Shown here piece by piece: positions 3,290 to 64,000 of a DNA stretch of 64,000 nucleotides. Location: the NCBI GenBank assembly GCA_050015075.1, contig JBEKCB010000013.1:32001-96000 (forward strand), in the 5' to 3' direction. The notes under the pieces were generated by a model. That model was given only the letters and a program-made list of their open reading frames with translations. It did no database searches and was not told the DNA's origin. How positions within the stretch are numbered: the first letter of the stretch is position 1; every line of letters begins with the position of its first letter. The position numbers and the translations under genes were made by a program. This DNA is from Candidatus Brocadiia bacterium (lineage in GTDB: Bacteria; Planctomycetota; Brocadiia; CAIUPP01).

Positions 3290-3332
3290 TGGCCGTCGGC
3301 GGGAATATGGCGCGGAGCATAAGTCATGCTTC

Positions 3333-3417
3333 ACCACGACGGCACGACGAGCACTACGTACGGATTAGAACCATTAATCTAACTTTCCGTACGTCGTGTT
3401 CGTCGCGCCGTCGTGGT
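3333..3417. repeat. 85-bp inverted-repeat element, ACCACGACGGCACGACG class
   Basis: ACCACGACGGCACGACGAGCACTACGTACGGA...TCCGTACGTCGTGTTCGTCGCGCCGTCGTGGT; sibling at 43776-43860. Confidence 0.9.
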
Positions 3418-3491
3418 AAAAGCGTGTGCTTCGTGGTGAGAGGATGAGGATGTTTTCGTTGAGGCCGCTGGTTCGCGGGAGGAGCGCCCCG

Positions 3492-5009: not shown

Positions 5010-6062
5010 TCACCCGCCCGGATCGCGCTCCTCCGCCGACCCGCTGCGATCCCAGCGTTTCGTTCTCCACGAGACCAGCCTCGCCGCGATCGGCGGGCAG
5101 AACGTGGCGCTCCACAATGCCAGCGTTGCAGGCTTCGGCCGGGCTCGCAGCGCGGCAATGTAATGGGCGCGCGCCTCGCGCATCTCGCCCTGGTTCACCC
5201 GCGCCGTCGCGCAGTTGTCGTGCAGCCGGGCCATGCTCGAGAGGATGGTCCGCCGCCCGGCCTGCCGGCATATTTCCGGCGACCGGAGCCACCGCTCCAT
5301 CACCACCAGCAGGTCGCGGAGCATCTGCGTTCCTCCGTGCTGCGTGTGCTGCCGCGCGTGATGCCGGTACTGGTAAAGCGCCTCCGGGATGTACGCGAAG
5401 GAATACCGGACGGCCAGCCGCATCCAGAGATCCCAATCGTCCGGCCCTCGAAGCCCGGCATCGAAACCGCCGACCTCCATGAGGACCGACTTCCGGGCGA
5501 TGACTCCGGAACAGGAGTTGACCAGGCACCGCTTCACGAGGGCCTCGGTGAAAGGCTTTTCGGGAAGCAGCACGGCGCCTCGCCCGAGCGGTTTTGCCTG
5601 CCGGCTCACCGAATCGAGCAGGCGATCCCGCTCAGCCGTTGAACCGTGCGTCATGGGCTTTCCCTGGTCGTCAATGTGGCTCCATCGGGTGAAGCAGACG
5701 ACGGTGGACGGCTCTTCCAGGAACACGGCGGCCTGCCGTTCGAGTTTCTCCGGCAGCCAGAGGTCGTCCTGGTCGAGGAAGGCCACCCAGTCGCCGCGCG
5801 CGGCCGCAATGCCCTGGTTTCGCGCCGCGGCCCCGCCCTGGTTGCTCTGCCGGAGGTATCGGACGCGGTCGCCGAAGCGGCGCACGACTTCCGGCGTGGC
5901 ATCGGTCGAGCCGTCATCCACGACGATGATCTCGACGTTGGAGTAGGTCTGTGCGAGGGCGCTCTCGATGGTCTGGCCGATGAAGCGCTCGCCGTTGAAT
6001 GCCGGGATGACCACACTGACCAGCGGGGCTGCCGGTCCGGCGTGCGTCACTTGGGCCTCCAT
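5010..6062 (-). CDS. GT2 glycosyltransferase
   Basis: VSVVIPAFN, VVDDGSTD, FLDQDD, DDWDLW. Confidence 0.9.
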   Translation of the reverse strand: MEAQVTHAGPAAPLVSVVIPAFNGERFIGQTIESALAQTYSNVEIIVVDDGSTDATPEVVRRFGDRVRYLRQSNQGGAAARNQGIAAARGDWVAFLDQDDLWLPEKLERQAAVFLEEPSTVVCFTRWSHIDDQGKPMTHGSTAERDRLLDSVSRQAKPLGRGAVLLPEKPFTEALVKRCLVNSCSGVIARKSVLMEVGGFDAGLRGPDDWDLWMRLAVRYSFAYIPEALYQYRHHARQHTQHGGTQMLRDLLVVMERWLRSPEICRQAGRRTILSSMARLHDNCATARVNQGEMREARAHYIAALRARPKPATLALWSATFCPPIAARLVSWRTKRWDRSGSAEERDPGG

Positions 6063-6262
6063 TCCGGTGCGCTCCGCCTCTCGGGACGAACGCGCCGCGC
6101 CTCGCGGATCCGGCTGCGTCGGTTGGATACATGGCGCCGTATGAACGATCGGGCGGCGCCGGCAAATCTTACCCTGAGCGGCCCGGACAAGTCAACGTCT
6201 GGCTGCAGGCCGGCGGATATAACCATCTTAGCAGGCCATGCTTACGCGCATGATCTGCGCTG

Positions 6263-21243: not shown

Positions 21244-22475
21244 CGAAAGAGATCCCGAATTCGCCGCTGCGCTGCCTGGTGCTGGCGGACACGTTCCCCA
21301 GCGCGCTGGAGCCGTGGCGCGGCCCGTACAACCGCCGGCAGATCGAGTGCCTCGCGCGGCTCTGCCGCGTGACGGCGATGGACCCGATGCCCTGGCCGCG
21401 CCTGCTGCGGGACCGGCGCGCGTGGGCGCTTGCGGCGCGGCCTGACGGCGTGCTCGACGGGATGACGATCCATCATCCGGTCTTCTGGTACCTGCCGGTG
21501 CTCGGCCGCGGGCGGACGTGGCGCGGTGTGGCTTCCGCAGTCGAACGCGCTCTGAAGCGCGAGCCGGACGCGCGCTGGGACGTGATCCTGGCGACGTTCG
21601 CCTATCCGCACGGCCTGGCCGCCAAACGGCTGGCGGAGCGGATGGGCGTGCCGTACCTGATCAAGGCGCGCGGGAGCGACCTGCACTCGCTGCCGGCCTC
21701 CGGCGCGCGCCGCGAGCTGACCGGCGAGGCGATCCGCGGCGCGGCGGGCGTCGTCGCCGTCAGCCGGACCCTGGCCGAGATCGCGCTGCAGCTCGGCGCG
21801 AAGCCGGACGGCGTGCGCGTGCTCACGAACGGCATTGACGCGGCGGCGTTCCAGGTGCTGGACCGCGCGGGCGCGCGGCGAGAACTCGGCCTGCCGGAAA
21901 TCGGCAAGCTGGTCCTTTTCGTCGGGAGCCTTCTGCCGGTGAAAGGGATTGACGTGCTGATGGAGGCGTTCCTGGCGATGCGCGCGCGGAACCCGGCGCT
22001 TTTCGCGCAGACGCAGTTGCTGATCGCCGGCGAAGGGCCGAAGCGAAGCTGGATCGTCCGGCGCATGGCCGACGAGGGATTGAGCGGCTCGGTGAAGCTG
22101 CTCGGCCACGTCGGGCGGGAAAGGATCGCCCGGCTGATGAGCGCGGCGGACGTCCTGGCGCTGCCGAGCCGGAACGAGGGCTGCCCGAACGTCGTGCTTG
22201 AGGCCCTCGCCTGCGGCACGCCGGTCGTCGCGGCGCGGGTCGGCGCGGTCCCGGACCTGCTGGACGAAAGCAGCGGGATCATCGTGCCGCCGGAGGATCG
22301 CGCGCAGTTCGCCGCGGCGCTGGAGCGGGCGCTCGCGAGGCCCTGGGACCGCGCGGCGCTGCGGCGGCGCGTGGAAGGAATGTCCTGGGAAGCGAACGCG
22401 CGGGCGCTGTATGAAATGCTGGCGCTGGTGGTTGGGAGAGTGGGAGATTTGGAAACTGGGAAATTGGGAGATTAG
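21240..22475 (+). CDS. GT4 glycosyltransferase (TuaC-like); start probably CTG 21240
   Basis: RGSD, FVGSLLPVKG, EGCPNVVLEALACG; first beta-strand LRCLVL begins upstream of GTG 21279. Confidence 0.85.
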   Translation: MTKEIPNSPLRCLVLADTFPSALEPWRGPYNRRQIECLARLCRVTAMDPMPWPRLLRDRRAWALAARPDGVLDGMTIHHPVFWYLPVLGRGRTWRGVASAVERALKREPDARWDVILATFAYPHGLAAKRLAERMGVPYLIKARGSDLHSLPASGARRELTGEAIRGAAGVVAVSRTLAEIALQLGAKPDGVRVLTNGIDAAAFQVLDRAGARRELGLPEIGKLVLFVGSLLPVKGIDVLMEAFLAMRARNPALFAQTQLLIAGEGPKRSWIVRRMADEGLSGSVKLLGHVGRERIARLMSAADVLALPSRNEGCPNVVLEALACGTPVVAARVGAVPDLLDESSGIIVPPEDRAQFAAALERALARPWDRAALRRRVEGMSWEANARALYEMLALVVGRVGDLETGKLGD

Positions 22476-22547
22476 GAGATTGGGAGATTGGGTCACGGAT
22501 AACCGCGTCACCCAATTTCCTGATTTCCCAATCTCCTAATCTCCCAG
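22432..22547. repeat. inverted repeat whose arms are 8-bp (TGGGAGAT-like) tandem repeats
   Basis: About 7 units TGGGAGAT, a short spacer, then about 5 units ATCTCCCA; sibling at 53132-53210. Confidence 0.85.
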
Positions 22548-22562
22548 TTCCGAGGAAAGCGC

Positions 22563-23201
22563 ATGAAGTTTCTGACGGACCAGTTCCAGGAAGTGCAAAT
22601 CGAGAACGGCGGCCGCCGGCCGTGGCTCTTTCCCGACCTGCGCGCCGACATGCGCGCGAAGGCCGTCTGGTATTACGGGGCGCAGCGGCAGGGCCGGCTC
22701 GACGGCCTGCGAATGCTGATGAGCGACGGGAGCCTCTGCACCGTGCTGTACCGGCTGATGCGCGCGCTGCGGCGGATGCATCTCGGCCCTCTGGCCGCGG
22801 CGGTGTACAAGCTGAATGCGTTCCTGACGCGGGCGGTCATCGGGCGCGGCGCGGAGTTCGGGCCGGGGCTGATCATCCTGCACAGCGTCGGCGTCATCGT
22901 CAACACGGCGGTGCGCGGCGGCGAAAACGTGATCCTGGAGGGCGGCGTGACGCTCGGCGCTGAGAAGAAGCAGTCGCCGACGCTGGGCGACAACGTCTTT
23001 ATCGGAGGCGGCGCCAAAGTGATCGGAGGCGTTCGTCTCGGAAACGGCGCGCGCATCGGCGCGAACGCGGTGGTCGTGGAAGACGTGCCCGAAGGCGCGA
23101 CGGCGGTCGGCATCCCGGCGCGCGTGGTCCGTGTTCGCGGCGGCGAACATTCTGATTCACCACCAAGACACCAAGGCACCAAGGACGGAGAGTCAGGCTA
23201 A
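22563..23201 (+). CDS. serine O-acetyltransferase-like LbH protein
   Basis: GPGLIILHSVG, PTLGDNVFIGGGAKVIG, IGANAVV, VGIPAR. Confidence 0.85.
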   Translation: MKFLTDQFQEVQIENGGRRPWLFPDLRADMRAKAVWYYGAQRQGRLDGLRMLMSDGSLCTVLYRLMRALRRMHLGPLAAAVYKLNAFLTRAVIGRGAEFGPGLIILHSVGVIVNTAVRGGENVILEGGVTLGAEKKQSPTLGDNVFIGGGAKVIGGVRLGNGARIGANAVVVEDVPEGATAVGIPARVVRVRGGEHSDSPPRHQGTKDGESG

Positions 23202-23242
23202 CTTCAAAGGATTCGTTCTTGGTGTCTTGGTGCCTTGGTGGT
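23159..23242. repeat. ACCACCAAG-class inverted-repeat element (empty form)
   Basis: ACCACCAAGACACCAAGGCACCAAGGA...TTCTTGGTGTCTTGGTGCCTTGGTGGT. Confidence 0.9.
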
Positions 23243-23260: not shown

Positions 23261-24517
23261 ATGCACGTATTGTATCACCATCGGACGGCCGGCGACCGCG
23301 TGGAGGCGGTGCACATCCTCGGGATCGTGCGCGCGCTGCGCGCGATGGGACACACCGTCGAGATTTCCAGCCCGCCCGGCTGCAACCCGGAACGCAAGGC
23401 GGCGGAGCCGCAACGCGCGGAAGGCCACGCGCCGCAGGAAGGGGCGCTGCGCGGCCGGCTGAAGCGGTTCGCGCGGAAGGCGCCGCCGTGGGTTTTCGAG
23501 GCCGCCGAACTAGGGTACAATGCGTATTCGCTCTTCGACATGCTGCGGCGCCGTTTTGCCACGGGCCGGCCGGAGATGATCCTCGAGCGGGCCACGTCGA
23601 ACAGCTTCGCGCCGACGTGGCTGGCCGGGCGGTGGAACGTCCCGATCGTTCAGGAAGTGAACGTGACGACGCGCATCGGCCGGCTGCGGCCGCTGGTGCT
23701 GCGCGGCACGACGCAGCGCATCGAGCGCTGGGTCTACGGGCGCGCGGCGGTGATCGTGACCGTCTCCCGCGCGTTCGAGCGCATGCTGGCCGAGGACGGC
23801 TGGCCGGCGGAGAAGATGCTGGTCTGCCAGAACGCGATTGACCCGGCGGAGTTCGCCCCGGAATCGGTGAAGCCCGCCGCGCGCCCGGCCGGAATGAAGG
23901 AGGCTTTCATCGCCGGCTACGTCGGCGCGTTCGTGCCGTGGCACCGCGTGGACTTGATGGTCGAGTCGGCGCGCGAGCTGGCGCCGCGATATCCGCGCCT
24001 GCGCTGGCTGCTGGTCGGCGACGGCGTCGAGCGGCCGCGGATCGAGAAGATGCTGGCCGACTTCGGGCTGGCGGAAAAATTCTGGCTGCCCGGCGCGGTG
24101 AAGCACTCACTGATCCCATCGTATCTGATGGCGATGGACGCGGCGGTGATGCCGCATTCGAACCTGTTCGGTTCGCCGATGAAGCTCTTCGAGTACATGG
24201 CGATGGGCCGCGCGGTCGTGATGCCGGACGTGCCGCCGATCGCCGAGGTCGTGGAAGACGGCGTGAACGGGATGCTCTTCCGCGCGGAGGACGCCGCGGC
24301 GCTCAGCGGCGCGCTGGCGAAACTCGTCGAGGACGAGGCGTTCCGGCGCCGGCTCGGAGCGCGGGCGCGGCAGGACGCGCTCGAACGGCACACCTGGGCG
24401 GCGAACGCCCGGCGGCTGCTGGCGGCAGTCGCGGAACATAAAGGATTAACCACCAAGGCGCCAAGGCACAAAGAAACAACAGCTTCCACCACGGAAAACA
24501 CGGAGCACACGGAATGA
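23261..24517 (+). CDS. GT4 glycosyltransferase
   Basis: EAVHI, EVN, GYVGAFVPWH, SPMKLFEYMAMG. Confidence 0.9.
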   Translation: MHVLYHHRTAGDRVEAVHILGIVRALRAMGHTVEISSPPGCNPERKAAEPQRAEGHAPQEGALRGRLKRFARKAPPWVFEAAELGYNAYSLFDMLRRRFATGRPEMILERATSNSFAPTWLAGRWNVPIVQEVNVTTRIGRLRPLVLRGTTQRIERWVYGRAAVIVTVSRAFERMLAEDGWPAEKMLVCQNAIDPAEFAPESVKPAARPAGMKEAFIAGYVGAFVPWHRVDLMVESARELAPRYPRLRWLLVGDGVERPRIEKMLADFGLAEKFWLPGAVKHSLIPSYLMAMDAAVMPHSNLFGSPMKLFEYMAMGRAVVMPDVPPIAEVVEDGVNGMLFRAEDAAALSGALAKLVEDEAFRRRLGARARQDALERHTWAANARRLLAAVAEHKGLTTKAPRHKETTASTTENTEHTE

Positions 24518-24594
24518 ATTGCCTAAACACCTTCAGTGTCTTCCGTGTGTTCGGTGGTTGCAATATCAGCTGACGTTCTTGGCGCCTTGGTGGT
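24449..24594. repeat. nested element: ACCACCAAG outer arms enclosing an ACCACGGAA inner hairpin (24488-24558)
   Basis: Single-unit version of the 37332-38019 array. Confidence 0.9.
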
Positions 24595-30569: not shown

Positions 30570-30654
30570 GTCATGCCGAGCGCAGCGAAGCATCTCACAC
30601 GCTTCGGCCTGCAGGCATGCTGTGTATGAGATTCTTCGCTTCGCTCAGAATGAC
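30570..30654. repeat. REP-like inverted pair (GTCATTCTGAGCGAAGCGAAGAATCTC type) between convergent genes
   Basis: 27-bp arms 30570-30596 and 30628-30654, 4 mismatches. Confidence 0.8.
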
Positions 30655-36496: not shown

Positions 36497-37309
36497 TTAC
36501 GAAGGCCGCCGCGTTTTCGCCGCCGCCAGCTCGGCCAGGAAATCGCCCATGCCGGAGATCAATTCCGCGCGCGGGCGGCTGGACAGCTCCGCGATCTTCC
36601 GCACCAGCGCGCTGCCGACGATCACCCCGTCGGCGGCGCGGGCCACGGCGGCGACCTGCTCCGGACGCGAAATCCCGAACCCCACCGCCACCGGCTTGTC
36701 CGTCACCGCCTTGAGTTTGGCGATGTGATCGGCCAGGTCGGGCGGCAGTTCATGGCGCGCGCCGGTGGTGCCGGCGACGGCGATATAATAGATGAACCCG
36801 CGCGAACGCGCGGCGACGGCCTTCATCCGCTCCGGCGGCGTCGTCGGCGCCACCAGGAAGACCGGATGCAGCCCGTGGGATTCCGCCAGCCGCGCCACCT
36901 CTTTCCCCTCGTCGGCCGGCAGCTCCGGGATGATGACGCCGTCCACGCCGGCGTCGGCCGCGCGTTGGAAATAGCTCTCCGGCCCGATGCGCCAGACGAT
37001 GCTGTAGGAGACCATCGTCAGGATGGGCACGTCGCAGCGCCTGCGCACGTCGCGGACCATCTCCAGGATCGGCTGGACCTTCAGCCCCTTCTCGAGCGCG
37101 CGGACGTAGGAACTCTGGATCGTCGGCCCGTCCGCCACCGGATCGGAATAGGGGATGCCCACTTCGACCAGGTCCGCGCCGCGGCGCGCGAATTCCTCGA
37201 TCAACGCGCCCGTGGCGGCCAGGTCCGGGTCGCCGGCGGTGATGAACGGCATCAGCGCCGCCGCGTTCGCCGCCCGCGTTCGCCGGAACGCTGCGTCAAT
37301 CCGGTTCAT
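36497..37309 (-). CDS. trpA: tryptophan synthase alpha subunit
   Basis: ITAGDP, EVGIPYSDPVADGPTIQ, VGFGIS, ADGVIVGSA. Confidence 0.97.
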   Translation of the reverse strand: MNRIDAAFRRTRAANAAALMPFITAGDPDLAATGALIEEFARRGADLVEVGIPYSDPVADGPTIQSSYVRALEKGLKVQPILEMVRDVRRRCDVPILTMVSYSIVWRIGPESYFQRAADAGVDGVIIPELPADEGKEVARLAESHGLHPVFLVAPTTPPERMKAVAARSRGFIYYIAVAGTTGARHELPPDLADHIAKLKAVTDKPVAVGFGISRPEQVAAVARAADGVIVGSALVRKIAELSSRPRAELISGMGDFLAELAAAKTRRPS

Positions 37310-37331
37310 CGAACCTCACCCCTTCATTCTT

Positions 37332-38019
37332 ACCACCAAGGCGCAAAGAGACAACGGCTTCCACCACGGAATACACGGAGCACACTGAATGACTTTCCTA
37401 AACAGCTTCAGTGTCTTCAGTGTGTTCCGTGGTAGCAATATCAGTTGGCGCTCTCGGCGCCATACGTCTTTCACCACGGAATACACGGAGCACACCGAAT
37501 AACTTTCCTAAACAGCTTCAGTGTCTTCAGTGTGTTCCGTGGTTGCAACATGAGTTGGCGGTGTTGGCGCCATACGGCTTCCACCACGGAATACACGGAG
37601 CACACCGAATGACTTTCCTAAACAGCTTCAGTGTCTTCAGTGAGTTCCGTGGCAGCAATATCAGTTGGCGCTCTCGGCGCCATACGTCTTTCACCACGGA
37701 ATACACGGAGCACACCGAATGACTTTCCTAAACAGCTTCAGTGTCTTCAGTGTGTTCCGTGGTTGCAATATCAGTTGGCGCTCTCGGCGCCATACGTCTT
37801 TCACCACGGAATACACGGAGCACACCGAATGACTTTCCTAAACAGCTTCAGTGTCTTCAGTGTGTTCCGTGGCAGCAATATCAGTTGGCGCTCTAGGCGC
37901 CATACGGCTTCCACCACGGAATACACGGAGCACACTGAATGACTTTCCTAAACAGCTTCAGTGTCTTCAGTGTGTTCCGTGGTTGCAATAACTGTTGCCG
38001 TTCTTGGTGTCTTGGTGGT
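37332..38019. repeat. six tandem 110-bp hairpin units inside ACCACCAAG outer arms
   Basis: Units start at 37361, 37471, 37581, 37691, 37801, 37911. Confidence 0.97.
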
Positions 38020-38027
38020 TAACTATG

Positions 38028-39215
38028 TTAAAGTTTTTGTCCAAGTTTCTCCGCCACCTCGACGCAGTCCTTGTCGCCGCGGCCGGAGAGGCAGATCACC
38101 AGGATCTCCTCCGGCCTCATCTTCGGCGCCAGTTCCGCGGCGTGCGCGACGGCGTGCGCCGATTCCAGCGCGGGGATGATCCCCTCGAGCCGCGAGAGCA
38201 GCCCGAAAGCGTCCAGCGCCTGCTGGTCCGTCGCCGAGACATACCGCGCGCGGGCGGTCTCCTTCCAGTAGCTGTGCTCGGGGCCGACGCCCGGATAATC
38301 CAGCCCGGCCGAGACGCTGTGCACCGGCAGCGTCTGGCCCTCGCTGTCCTGGAGCACGTACGAGCGGCTGCCGTGGAGGACGCCCACGGAACCTTTCATC
38401 AGCGTGGCGGCGTGCAGGCCGCTGTCGAGGCCGAGCCCGGCCGCCTCGACGCCGATCAACCGGACCGCCTTGTCCTTGACGAACGGGTGGAACATGCCGG
38501 CCGCGTTGCTGCCGCCGCCGACGCAGGCGACGACCGCATCGGGCAGCCGGCCTTCCTTGCGGAGCATCTGGCGCCGCGTCTCGCGGCCGATCACGGTCTG
38601 GAAATCGCGCACCATCATCGGGTACGGATGCGGCCCGGCGACCGAGCCGATGATGTAATGAGTCGTGGCGGAGGAAGCCATCCAGTCGCGCATCGCCTCG
38701 GTCATCGCGTCCTTGAGCGTGCGCGCGCCCGAGCCGACCGGCACCACGCGCGCGCCGAGCGTGCGCATCCGGAAGACGTTGAGCGCCTGCCGGCGGATGT
38801 CTTCCTCGCCCATGTACACCGCGCACTCGAAGCCGAAAAGCGCCGCGACGACCGCGGTGGCCACGCCGTGTTGCCCCGCGCCGGTCTCCGCGATGACGCG
38901 CTTCTTGCCCATGCGCCGCGCCAGCAGCGCCTGCCCGAGCGTGTTGTTGATCTTGTGCGCGCCGGTGTGGAGCAGGTCCTCGCGCTTGAGGTAGACCCGC
39001 GCCCCGCCGCAATGCCGCGTGAAGCGCTCCGCGAACGTCAGCGCCGTCGGCCGGCCCGCGTACTCGCGCAGGTAGTAGTCCAGGTCCTTGCGGAACTGCG
39101 GATCGCGCCGAGCGGCCTGGTACGCCGCGGTCAGCTCCACCACCGCCGGCATCAGCGTCTCCGGGATGAACCGTCCGCCGAAGGGTCCGAAATGTCCTTT
39201 TGAGTCGGGCAGCAT
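38028..39215 (-). CDS. trpB: tryptophan synthase beta subunit
   Basis: [47 protein letters not shown]. Confidence 0.98.
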
Positions 39216-39498: not shown

Positions 39499-39527
39499 TT
39501 GACACGTCATTGACCGGGTGCTATAGT
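39499..39527 (+). promoter_or_regulatory. sigma70 promoter
   Basis: TTGACA-N17-TATAGT. Confidence 0.7.
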
Positions 39528-41419: not shown

Positions 41420-41606
41420 ACCACCAAGGCACCAAGACACCAAGAGAGACTTAACCACGGAGCGATAGCGCGAGCCGGCGAGCGCTGCCTGTCGCCACAG
41501 ATAAACACAGACCAGGCCAAGAACGAAGTTTCTATCTGCGCTCATCTGTGTGCATCTGGGGTTCCCAAATCCGTTGCCGTTCTTGGTGTCTGGGTGACTT
41601 GGTGGT
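41420..41606. repeat. nested element: ACCACCAAG outer arms with a different (CCACAGAT/ATCTGTG) inner hairpin
   Basis: ACCACCAAGGCACCAAGACACCAAGA...CCACAGATAAACACAGA...ATCTGTGTGCATCTGGGG...TCTTGGTGTCTGGGTGACTTGGTGGT. Confidence 0.85.
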
Positions 41607-42414: not shown

Positions 42415-42448
42415 GGCTGCTCAGCGGCGCATGATGTGATTCGGGCGA

Positions 42449-42552
42449 CTCGTCCTCGTCCTCGGCCTCGTCCTCGGCCGTTCGTTACAGATATTCGAGG
42501 CCGAGGACGACGACGAGGACGAGGACGACGACGAGGACGAGGACGAGGACGA
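42449..42552. repeat. inverted repeat with (CTCGTC)n / (GAGGAC)n arms
   Basis: Intergenic; sibling at 58316-58406. Confidence 0.85.
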
Positions 42553-42633
42553 TTGGGAGGCTGCTAAACCTGGGCGTCCAGGTGACGGCGCGATACCGTG
42601 CAGAGGTTTTCGGGAAGGAGGAGTTGGAATCCA

Positions 42634-43743: not shown

Positions 43744-43775
43744 CCCGTTATCGAACAGAGCGCAAGTAATCTTTC

Positions 43776-43860
43776 ACCACGACGGCACGACGAGCACGAC
43801 GTACGGATAAGATTTGTTAACCTCTTTTTCCGTACGTCGTGCTCGTCGTGCCGTCGTGGT
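43776..43860. repeat. 85-bp ACCACGACGGCACGACG-class inverted repeat between convergent genes
   Basis: Near-perfect ~32-bp arms; same length as 3333-3417. Confidence 0.9.
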
Positions 43861-43871
43861 AAGAGCCGGCG

Positions 43872-50932: not shown

Positions 50933-52081
50933 TCAGGGTGTCGCCTTCTCAATCTTCTGCAACGCCTCTAGCGCCTCAACATTGCCCTGGTCGGCGGCCT
51001 TGCGGTACCACTTCACCGCCTCGGCCTTATCCTGCACGACGCCTCCGCCATTGTCGTAGCAGACCCCGAGGTTGTATTGCGCTGCCGCGTAGCCCTGGTC
51101 GGCGGCCTTGCGGTACCACTTCACTGCCTCGGCCCTGTCTTGGGCTACGCCTCCGCCTTTATAGTAGCAGTTCCCGAGGTTGAATTGCGCCTTTGCGTAG
51201 CCTTGGTCTGCGGCCTTGCGATACCACTTGACCGCCACGGCCTTGTCCTGCTCGATGCCTCCGCCATTGTCGTAGCAGACCCCGAGGTTGTATTGCGCCC
51301 CCGCGTCGCCCTGGTCTACAGCCTTGCGGAACCACTTCACCGCCTCGGTCCTGTCTTGGGCTACGCCTCCGCCATTGTAATAGCAGTTCCCGAGGTTACA
51401 TTGCGCCTGCGCGTAGTCCTGGTCTGCGGCCTTGCGATACCACTTCACCGCCGCAGCCTTGTCCTGCACGACGCCATCGCCATTGTCGTAGCAGACCCCG
51501 AGGTTGTATTGCGCCCCCGCGTCGCCCTGGTCCGCGGCCTTGCGGAACCACTTCACCGCCTCGACCCTGTCCTGGGCGACGCCTTCGGCATTGTAGTAGC
51601 AGAGGCCGAGGTTGTATTGTGCCGCCGCGAAGCACTGGTCTGCGGCCTTGCGGAACCACTTCGCCGCCTCGGCCCTGTCCTGGGTGACTCCTTCGCCATT
51701 GTAATAGCGGTTCCCGAGGTTGACTTGCGCCGCTGCGTCGCCCTGGTCTGCGGCCTTGCGGTACCACTTTACCGCGGCGGCCTTGTCCTCGGCGAAGCCT
51801 TCGCCATTGTCGTAGCAGAGCCCGAGGTTGTATTGCGCCTGCGGCAGGCCCTGCTCTGCGGCCTTGCGGTACCACTTCGCCGCCTCGGCCTTGTCCTGGG
51901 TGACACCTTCGCCATTGTCGTAGCAGACACCGAGGTTGTATTGCGCCTCCGCGTCGCCTTTCTCTGCGGCCGCGCGATACTGGTCCACGCTTTGGGGACG
52001 GAGAATAGAAATTGCAATGAAAGCGGACAGAGCGAATACTACGACTAGGATGACGCCTATCAAGAATGACTTCCGGCTCAT
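50933..52081 (-). CDS. membrane-anchored Sel1-like repeat protein (9 repeats)
   Basis: N-terminal TM helix; 36-aa AQYNLG.CY.NG.GV.QD..EAVKWYRKAADQG repeats. Confidence 0.95.
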   Translation of the reverse strand: MSRKSFLIGVILVVVFALSAFIAISILRPQSVDQYRAAAEKGDAEAQYNLGVCYDNGEGVTQDKAEAAKWYRKAAEQGLPQAQYNLGLCYDNGEGFAEDKAAAVKWYRKAADQGDAAAQVNLGNRYYNGEGVTQDRAEAAKWFRKAADQCFAAAQYNLGLCYYNAEGVAQDRVEAVKWFRKAADQGDAGAQYNLGVCYDNGDGVVQDKAAAVKWYRKAADQDYAQAQCNLGNCYYNGGGVAQDRTEAVKWFRKAVDQGDAGAQYNLGVCYDNGGGIEQDKAVAVKWYRKAADQGYAKAQFNLGNCYYKGGGVAQDRAEAVKWYRKAADQGYAAAQYNLGVCYDNGGGVVQDKAEAVKWYRKAADQGNVEALEALQKIEKATP

Positions 52082-53101: not shown

Positions 53102-53220
53102 ACCACCCGGACACTAAGACACCAAGAACGGCGGAGATTGGGTAATTAGGAAATTCGGAAATTGGGATTCGGTAACGCGGCCGTCCTAATTTCCCAATCT
53201 CCCAATCTCCAAGCCGTGTT
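53102..53220. repeat. hybrid element: left ACCAC..CACCAAG arm plus 8-bp-unit inverted repeat
   Basis: ACCACCCGGACACTAAGACACCAAGAACGGC then GGAGATTGGGTAATTAGGAAATT...AATTTCCCAATCTCCCAATCTCC. Confidence 0.75.
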
Positions 53221-53330
53221 CCTTTCACGAACAATACCATAATCAGCAAACGATGGAAAACCGGCGCACAATATTGTATGGTGATTGCGTGGGTTTCGCC
53301 CCGTTCTTCTGGTTTTTGAGGGAGAGCGCC

Positions 53331-58295: not shown

Positions 58296-58315
58296 CGCTC
58301 GGCGCAGCGCAACCA

Positions 58316-58406
58316 CTCGTCCTCGTCCTGGTCCTCGGCCTCGTCCTCGAATTGCCATTCTTGACGGCCGAGGCTGAGGACGACGACGAGGACGAGGACG
58401 AGGACG
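58316..58406. repeat. (CTCGTC)n/(GAGGAC)n inverted repeat
   Basis: Intergenic; sibling of 42449-42552. Confidence 0.85.
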
Positions 58407-58495
58407 CGTCGTTCCGCTTGCCGCCGATTCGGCAGCAGCGTAAGATTATGGGCAGATGGCCGGCTTCCACGCTTGCCTCGGAGAAGGAGAAACGA

Positions 58496-62105: not shown

Positions 62106-62255
62106 GACGCCTCCGATTCCGCTGCGAGATGCCCGCGCGCAAAAATGTGATTTTATCACCAGCCGCCGCGTAAAGATAGCCACGCAGAAAGTCAGCCCTC
62201 GTTGCGACCTTCGGAGGAATGTGGTAATCTTGAAGCAGCAATCGGGAGAACGTCC

Positions 62256-62540
62256 ATGCACAAAGTCATCGAAGTCAACGTACTCGATCGTTACAGGTTA
62301 GACCTGCGGTTTGAAGACGGGGCGCGCGGGGCCGTAGATTTATCGCACCTCGTCGGGAAAGGCGTTTTCCGAAAATGGGAAGACTACCAGGCCTTCCGCC
62401 AGGTCAAGATAGGTCCCGCAGGAGAGTTGGCCTGGGGAGACGATCTGGACTTGTGCCCGGACGCCCTGTACCTGAAGGCGACAGGGCGTCAACCGGAAGA
62501 CATTTTTCCGGGTCTGAAACGAGAACCTGCGCATGCCTGA
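62256..62540 (+). CDS. DUF2442-family protein
   Basis: [37 protein letters not shown]. Confidence 0.8.
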
Positions 62541-63336
62541 TAGCGCCACGATGGACACGGCTACGGCAAAGGCGAAGAAACGTAAGTCTCCTGCAGGTGT
62601 GGCGACGAACGACCTCGTGTTTAGTTCGTATGTTGGGACCAACGACGAGGTTTTCCCGTTCGTCCTTTCGCTCTATGTGGCCAAAGGAAGCACCGTTGCA
62701 GATGTAACTTACGGCAAGGGAGTTTTTTGGCGAAAGGTCCATGCCGACAGCTACAAGCTCCTGGCGACGGACCTTTCAAGCGGCGTGGACTGCCGAAATC
62801 TGCCGTATCAGGCCGATTCAATAGACTGCGTTGTTTTTGATCCGCCCTACATGCACACGCCCGGCGGAAGCGCACATGCGAACCATCAGAATTACGAAAA
62901 TTACTACCGCAACAACAAAGCTCTGTCAGAGCGCAAGTACCATGAAGCGGTGCTGGACCTTTATTTCACCGCGGCCGCTGAAGCATGGCGGGTTCTGCGG
63001 CCCGGCGGAGCTTATATCGTCAAGTGCCAGGATGAGGTCTGCGCCAACGTCCAGCGCCTGACCCATGTCGAAATAATTAACGAATACGCGAGGCGCGGTT
63101 TTGTCGCTGAGGATTTGTTTGTCGTTGTGCGAAATGGGAGGCCCGGCGTCAGCCGCCTTCTGAAGCAGGCTCACGCGCGGAAAAGTCATTCATACTTTCT
63201 CGTCTTCTTGAAACCCCGAGGGCGCAAACGTTGGGCTGGCCTTCACTCAACGGCGCGTCTTGAAGTGCAGGAAACGCCAAAGGTCAGGTCTGCCTGCGTC
63301 GGCCCCGGCGTCCGAACAAGGACGCTCTTTCCTTGA
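62533..63336 (+). CDS. amino (m6A/m4C) DNA methyltransferase
   Basis: [10 protein letters not shown] (motif I) followed by VVFDPPY (motif IV), RVLRPGG..IVKCQD. Confidence 0.8.
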
Positions 63337-64000
63337 AGAACTCGCCGAACTGCTTGATCTGAATCACTTCCGGGAAGCTCTCTGTCAGTGTCTTGTATCG
63401 GCATGGAACGTCGAAGTAGTAAATGCGCTCCATTTTCGATAAGAGCGTCTGGTACACAAGCCACTGGTCCGGGACGCATATCTCGACAACTTCGCGAGTC
63501 CGGGAATCCAGTTTTGTTTCCGAAAAAAGAACCATTATCCCCCTGAACACGTTCTCTCCATGTGCACTGTCCAGAATACGCTGGTGCGCCCAGGCCTGAA
63601 CCACCCGCTCGCGCGTGGACATCTTCACGGGCAGGTGTATCTGTCGCCCGCTTTGCCCGGCGAAAAGGAAGTCCATAGTCAGGCGAACACTTCTCCCTTG
63701 CACCCTTATGGACGCCTGCTTCTGAGGGTTGACGCCGAGCTCCCGGGCGAACATGTGCCCGATGAGGCACTCAAAGTATGTCGCCGGCGCTTTCTTGTTC
63801 TGCCTGTCGAACAGCTCCATGGCAAGGCAAGGGGCCAGTACAACGGTGTATGAGAACCGCGCGAAGCTTCTTGGGGCGATTCTGCCGCGTTCCCATTCAC
63901 GCCAGGAAAGCGAGATTTTTCGAGGGTCTCGAATGAACAAGTGCGCATTGGCCGGTCTCGCCACAAGACGCCTGTTTCCCCGGCGCGCAAAAGAGAAGTA
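63284..64000 (-). CDS. putative type II restriction endonuclease (5' partial)
   Basis: Open to the window edge; [22 protein letters not shown] resembles the K-x-S/T-x-R-E-R motif; convergent with the MTase. Confidence 0.65.

Follow-up and report, generated by a model that had tools for sequence, protein, structure and literature searches.

The trpB and trpA genes of this Candidatus Brocadiia genome are separated by six tandem copies of a nested palindrome. We consider it probable that a dispersed, non-coding palindromic element of a REPIN/BIME-like kind has here expanded locally in tandem, and that any consequence for trpA is a side effect that is tolerated. The array is a real feature, ordinary in kind at the trpB-trpA junction, and it looks like selfish DNA, not like a dedicated regulator.

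Anatomy of the array at the trpB-trpA junction

Both genes lie on the minus strand of the window (the whole 64-kb stretch of DNA that was analysed): trpB at 38028-39215, with its start at 39215 as read from the sequence, and trpA at 36497-37309 (270 aa). Both score above their TIGR cut-offs, and the first-pass annotation was thus right in stating that the array splits trpB from trpA. The two genes are 718 nt apart, a distance that would shrink to 30 nt if the element were removed. The whole composite, an outer palindrome that encloses six tandem inner hairpins, spans 37332-38019 (688 bp) and has a G+C content of 51%, compared to 66% for the window. In the sense of the mRNA it starts 8 nt past the trpB stop codon and ends 22 nt ahead of the trpA start, and the Shine-Dalgarno-like site of trpA itself (about 37316-37325) lies outside it. 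No other trp genes are found near the pair (36497-39215), and its upstream neighbour, a prepilin-type gene (DUF1559), is divergent and comes with a strong sigma-70-like site at 39499-39527. A search with TrpA showed that relatives exist in which this protein is 87-95% identical.

The outer palindrome had gone unnoticed in the first-pass annotation. Its left arm (37332-37348, plus strand) consists of ACCACCAAG-type short units and has one unit fewer than in the monomers; the right arm (38003-38019, minus strand) is the part that lies next to the trpB stop codon. The six inner hairpins, at 37363-37433, 37473-37543, 37583-37653, 37693-37763, 37803-37873 and 37913-37983, all have arms of 27 bp, made of three 9-nt units, and a loop of 17 nt, and the loops are near-identical. 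The first of the five junction linkers, which recur every 110 bp, is found at 37434-37472 and consists of a truncated right outer arm and a truncated left outer flank that are fused at GGCGCC. The most diverged linker follows the second hairpin, the fourth hairpin lies within a 108-nt exact repeat at lag 110, and the sixth is followed by the intact outer right arm. The ~27-bp stem per unit described earlier was thus recovered in all six cases, and the small hairpin seen earlier in most linkers measures 6 bp in four of the five and 5 bp in the remaining one. On both strands the region folds more stably than any of 20 shuffles (z-score -14.5 on the plus and -11.3 on the minus strand).

Tandem Repeats Finder reported a period of 110, 5.9 copies, 92% matches and 0% indels (span 37354-38004), and the self-identity of the array is 93% at lag 110 versus 22% at lags 109 and 111. 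The period is therefore as exact as first described; the units are not, as they show 2-7 differences from each other over the 88 columns common to all six. The odd/even alternation that had been read from the units is real at unit column 81, where A and T alternate perfectly, and is absent from columns 4 and 8, which read G,T,G,T,T,G and C,T,C,T,T,C. The 220-bp higher-order repeat that was deduced from it had to be dropped, and with it the proposed dimer-wise amplification: a single column alternates, the parity statistic is matched or exceeded in 144 of the 720 unit orders (permutation), and exact matches reach 108 nt at lag 110, compared to 67 nt at lag 220. A coding role of the array was also discarded, given stops in every frame on both strands.

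Relatives in the window and in other genomes

The element is not confined to trpB-trpA. A single copy of the composite, already pointed out in the first-pass annotation, is present at 24449-24594 and shares 88% identity with the first array unit along 126 nt; the glycosyltransferase frame upstream reads into it and stops at 24517. The outer palindrome also occurs without an inner hairpin (23159-23242), around a different inner palindrome (41420-41606), and as a left arm together with an inner palindrome built of octamers (53102-53226), the latter with a homolog at a locus of another genome (L070; 79% over 125 nt). A scan for long palindromes recovered 11 clusters at 10 sites in the window, versus 0, 0 and 0 in three order-3 Markov simulations. 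One of these sites (30570) belongs to another type, and the threshold of the scan was not reached by the 24449 monomer, so that the ten short-unit sites considered here are nine from the scan plus that monomer. By our gene calls, the genes on either side are co-directional at seven of the ten, divergent at two and convergent at one, which makes trpB-trpA one among several occupied operon junctions. Three of the seven are consecutive junctions in one polysaccharide cluster, the genes of which (21279-22475, 22563-23201 and 23261-24517) each read into the palindrome downstream; their final codons and stops thus derive from repeat DNA.

Other repeats in the window were recorded as well. A different palindrome of 9-nt units, also ending in ACCAC, is present twice, at 3329-3421 and 43769-43867 (81% alike), once between divergent and once between convergent genes. 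Palindromes of 8-nt units are found at 22432-22553 and 53132-53211, the second one nested in the outer element as at L070:2405-2555, and palindromes of 6/9-nt GAGGAC-type units, with co-directional genes on either side, at 42445-42557 and 58305-58419. The palindrome at 30570-30654, between convergent genes, is of a different class without short units, which we take to resemble REP/TIR-type ends. The gene at 50933-52081 encodes a Sel1-like repeat protein with nine 108-bp coding repeats, which are ordinary and unrelated to the 110-bp array. Finally, the stretch 62202-64000 holds a methyltransferase-like frame, a convergent endonuclease-like one and a small DUF2442-like one (named by eye), with a possible restriction-modification pair among them.

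Relatives were sought across a genome collection with an exact 23-nt arm pattern, and this yielded 72 loci (561 kb of sequence) in Verrucomicrobiota, Planctomycetota, Acidobacteriota, Armatimonadota, Chloroflexota, Desulfobacterota, Proteobacteria and others; the loci are not independent, several being from the same few genomes, and they include neither the genome of the window itself nor a close relative at trpBA. An inverted partner (at least 17/23 within 300 nt) was present downstream of the arm in 42 of the 72, only upstream in 7 and on neither side in 23, while 4 of 730 control stretches reached a partner score of 17. No fixed target was apparent; the dinucleotide before the arm was TA in 20 cases, GA in 18, AA in 12 and another one in 22. 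Two loci in one Candidatus Brocadiia MAG (L059 and L070) carry the same composite with the same loop as single copies (85-94% identity over 97-150 nt), and their neighbours are not trp genes: an AAA-type ATPase gene in one case and an oxidoreductase-like plus a convergent gene in the other (names read from the sequences). The element thus has unrelated genes as neighbours and can point either way with respect to their transcription. None of the 72 loci contains a tandem array like the one at trpB-trpA, nor three or more exact arms, and six copies are therefore unusual for the family. The first array unit gave no match to plasmids (blastn).

Some loci show other arrangements. Six loci from one Holophagae MAG (L023, L031, L034, L040, L063 and L069) have their arms tail-to-tail around a conserved spacer of ~45 nt, which is the reverse of the hairpin topology, resembles the array junction and could be a circularly permuted form. 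A 293-bp duplication that contains two copies was found at L033, and tandem duplications of 41-293 bp occur inside or within a few hundred bases of arms (L008:5068-5226, L010:4639-4795, L034:4432-4667 and 5277-6141, L048:1-142 and L033:4650-5100; four of the six from one genome), hinting that such sites promote local duplication. At L059:4941-5306, a four-helix-bundle gene (TIGR02436) is situated between inverted 7-nt-unit repeats, a parallel type of cassette.

Formation of the array and alternative explanations

All five junctions of the array are identical in register, and the junction motif, which occurs five times in the array, is found in none of the three monomers. From the five identical junctions we infer one founding duplication with later expansion and shuffling. 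Six independent insertions were rejected as an origin, since independent events would not repeat the single junction that all units have in common. Among the shared variant columns, six of ten pairs show all four gametes, a pattern that points to recombination or conversion among the units and not to clean dimer copying. As read from the sequence, GGCGC(C), which is self-complementary, is present in both outer arms at a spacing of 116 bp; compared to a clean join at these two sites the junction lacks 6 bp, which results in 110 bp.

The proposed series of events sets out from two observations: the unit is present as single copies at unrelated sites, in the window and in another Planctomycetota genome, and the composite consists of an inner hairpin of 9-nt units within an outer hairpin of 9/8-nt units that is also found empty or with other inserts. 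One composite copy would then have entered a trpB-trpA gap of ~30 nt, such that the trpB stop and the trpA ribosome-binding site were kept. A single duplication, to which the identical junctions point, would have brought the right outer arm and the left outer flank together at the GGCGC(C) microhomology, and the loss of 6 bp from the spacing would have fixed the period. Slippage or unequal recombination, as suggested by the mosaic variants, would finally have produced six copies and shuffled the variants among them.

Two other readings concern the reality of the array and its purpose. That the copy number or the order of the units is an artefact of assembly from a dispersed repeat appears quite improbable to us: the 108-nt exact repeat and the mosaic variants would suit an artefact, and a short-read graph could become tangled through near-identical copies at other places in the genome, but all six units differ from each other, unit 2 has a private diverged linker, 108 nt is less than a typical read length, and the presence of a junction that no monomer has implies that a duplication, at least, is real. 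Unlikely, though somewhat less so, is that the array has been selected as a structured RNA that sets the trpB:trpA ratio, whether as a 3' decay shield for the trpB mRNA, through processing, or by masking the ribosome-binding site of trpA. The array lies close to both genes, and its absence from the 72 other loci would agree with a local function; REPs have moreover been reported to stabilise mRNA and to act as terminators (PMC3333891). In the models, the trpA site is unpaired with a probability of 0.13-0.22 in the presence of the six copies versus 0.52-0.57 after removal of the element in silico (span 80 or 150 nt), and it is also paired in one global fold. However, with unlimited span the two values are 0.40 and 0.46, one copy has the same effect as six at a span of 80, and the values for 11 native control starts range from 0.00 to 0.66. 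The occupation of so many co-directional junctions, including the three in the polysaccharide cluster, equally speaks against a role specific to trpBA. Over the 27 pairs in nine aligned copies there are 0 compensatory changes, and 8 pairs vary only by breaking; as there is little divergence among the nine copies, this should be read as an absence of support and not as proof that selection is absent. With no promoter- or terminator-like site inside the array, no Rfam match at gathering score in the 64 kb, and unrelated neighbours in either orientation elsewhere, the earlier suggestion that the array tunes trpA as a selected structure finds no support. An incidental effect on trpA translation or mRNA stability is possible on the basis of the folding models. 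Liang, Rudd and Deutscher reportedly found in 2015 that E. coli REPs at most ~15 nt from a stop codon can affect translation under stress. The 8-nt distance from the trpB stop would by analogy fit such an effect, as a plausible side effect and not as evidence of purpose.

Readings in which the array yields or encodes a regulator of its own fare worse. We regard it as very improbable that the array gives rise, on its trpBA-antisense strand, to phased small RNAs or guide RNAs of a CRISPR-, TIGR- or retron-like kind. The hairpins are regular, and the centroid fold of the whole array favours the plus strand (-263 versus -177.5 kcal/mol), as does the count of G-T pairs on that strand in fixed register (12 versus 6 A-C), so that the G-U preference stated in the first-pass annotation does exist in the array. 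Nevertheless, this count equals two inherited positions times six, mismatches over the 42 paired loci from other genomes are balanced (36 G-T versus 41 A-C), and the strand of the arm, antisense at trpBA, is the sense strand at 24449; of the single units, four of six fold slightly better on the minus strand. The near-identical loops leave no variable spacers, cas, Tas and RT genes are absent among the window proteins scanned, and neither an Rfam match nor a promoter-like site in or just before the array was found, such that the proposal of an antisense small-RNA source was not sustained. A CRISPR array as such was rejected, as whole 110-bp units repeat at 92-93% without unique spacers and no cas gene is among the window proteins scanned. 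Hardly any credence can be given to a tryptophan-sensing leader, for which a 59-codon frame at 37316-37495 (minus strand) with two adjacent Trp codons, ending just before trpA, might be taken. Frame and WW are present in the sequence, but the Trp codons are the end of an arm read backwards, and the same nine bases recur at L059 beside a non-trp gene (they are absent at L070); the frame has no Pfam match and by eye no evident ribosome-binding site, and there is no terminator for it to control. A trp attenuator was on this last account likewise discarded despite the WW frame.

The GxxExxY nuclease and comparison with known systems

Within the 561 kb of the arm loci we found four GxxExxY genes, three of which (L022, L027 and L038) pass the TIGR04256 cut-off; the fourth (L049) is just under it and is truncated, broken off beside a transposase-like frame. 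A motif match at L061, a candidate fifth, was judged spurious by eye. The gene at L038 is bracketed by inverted arms of the same type and the one at L022, tightly, by an inverted sister arm type; at L027 an arm is found only upstream in the stretch viewed, and at L049 the searched arm is in frame with the start of the gene. The searched arm type itself adjoins a GxxExxY gene in only 2 of the 72 loci, similar arms being found at some others. At L078 and L080, the GxxExxY genes have direct copies of short-unit repeats before and after, and not inverted arms. GxxExxY, four-helix-bundle and RAYT genes were not found among the window proteins (47 scanned with NCBIfam, 17 with Pfam).

As an independent sample we took all 8 plasmid records that match GxxExxY, picked by protein alone. 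Flanking inverted arms scored above the shuffle maximum in two (19/20 and 18/20), equal to it in two and below it in four, and by eye, two of these four have short-unit repeats either on a single side or as direct copies. Of the two that exceed the maximum, one is located between fabD and fabG, which parallels the situation at trpB-trpA. The arms also appear in proteins: N-terminal extensions are present in 14 of 120 close GxxExxY homologs, all relatives of one query, and 12 of the 14 look by eye like translated arms. In a search with peptide signatures among 150 distant representatives, 13 of the 83 with extensions matched (3 of the inner and 2 of the outer type), which is uncontrolled and anecdotal. 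With the GxxExxY profile, 36,017 cluster representatives were recovered at E up to 0.001; among the best 150 of these (P0241-P0390), 30 have two matched stretches, i.e. tandem domains, and the ranking by score favours such proteins. No match of GxxExxY to phages was found by tblastn.

A structural model (pLDDT 95.7) was built on two locus proteins together with 115 of the 120 homologs. It resembles the folds of restriction nucleases, Cas4 and the Holliday-junction resolvase Hjc (best Z 7.4, rmsd 3.2, 112 aligned), where all matches are at Z <8, the best tied among several, too low to single out a relative or to show a function; with Foldseek nothing matched at E up to 0.001, and a comparison to PDB gave a chance-level match by sequence and none by profile. 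D69, E79 and K81 are invariant in 117 sequences, and the predicted restriction-endonuclease-like fold with an invariant D and ExK is what characterises PD-(D/E)XK nucleases.

These associations suggest that the repeat family of the array is possibly spread by GxxExxY instead of by a RAYT. As the last and weakest step of the proposed series, the family would consist of gene-free derivatives of arm-bracketed GxxExxY nuclease cassettes, with the nuclease as their likely mobiliser. In its full form we put this forward tentatively, as an idea that has less than an even chance of being right: the palindromes would be non-autonomous members of a widespread, RAYT-independent REPIN-like system in which the ~125-residue nuclease recognises or cuts arms of 9-nt units, as a cruciform or a single-strand hairpin, spreads cassettes and empty hairpins into operon junctions and into each other, and primes local tandem amplification as at trpB-trpA. 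Alternatively, the GxxExxY gene may be a passenger.

What the array teaches about trpBA itself is modest, namely that palindromic inserts are tolerated at operon junctions of this lineage, including one of 0.7 kb between genes for a stoichiometric complex. The wider interest is that ACCAC-ended palindromes of short units, found in Planctomycetota, Verrucomicrobiota, Acidobacteriota, Desulfobacterota and others, nest within each other and match the arm design of nuclease cassettes, and that arms translated into spurious protein tails matter for annotation. If GxxExxY does move the arms, REPIN-style spread would have been solved a second time, by a DNA-mobility system of very compact size. This would define a minimal new class of mobile DNA and provide a function for a family of 36,017 cluster representatives. 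Neither the repeat family nor its tie to GxxExxY was described in the literature within reach on GxxExxY/PDDEXK_3, REPs in Planctomycetes and four-helix-bundle proteins in connection with repeats (a body without most subscription journals), and the short-unit nested palindrome family is apparently undescribed.

Among known systems, GxxExxY/PDDEXK_3 (TIGR04256, PF13366) is listed in PMC3424549 as of unknown function, with many transfers; the likeness is that its genes are at several loci bracketed by arms built like those of the array, and the array itself is gene-free. Terminal inverted repeats in common with a gene-bearing element, as expected of a MITE, come down to the same arm type beside GxxExxY in the 2 of 72 loci, with similar arms at some others. 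The conserved GTAG or CGTC tag that accompanies REP palindromes of 20-40 nt in REPINs and BIMEs is missing here: GTAG occurs in one and CGTC in three of the six array units, and neither is found in that position in the three monomers, such that the element is not placed in the GTAG/CGTC REP superfamilies (Di Nocera et al. 2013, PMC3733652). It further differs from REPINs in that its arms are trimers of 9-nt units ending in ACCAC, where REPINs use short REP palindromes, and in that the 47 window proteins include no RAYT, the candidate partner here being a PD-(D/E)XK nuclease. Like REPINs and BIMEs, on the other hand, it is a dispersed, extragenic inverted pair that forms a hairpin and occurs singly as well as in tandem clusters of near-identical units repeated with flanking DNA, and in both, elements are found inserted within other elements; for REPINs, Bertels and Rainey 2011 (PMC3116915) report such nesting as well as ordered clusters in which near-identical units recur along with the flanking DNA, the largest >700 bp. 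As compared to BIME-2 and TnpA(REP) of E. coli, the conserved GTAG tag is lacking and a single arm is not itself a REP hairpin, while tandem copies that are conserved within a locus, variable linkers and a two-step model of spread followed by local amplification are shared (Ton-Hoang et al. 2012, PMC3333891). Tandem BIMEs are described there as varying in number between strains, and the earlier reading of the trpB-trpA array as a copy-number-variable locus would fit both its anatomy and the BIME/REPIN precedent.
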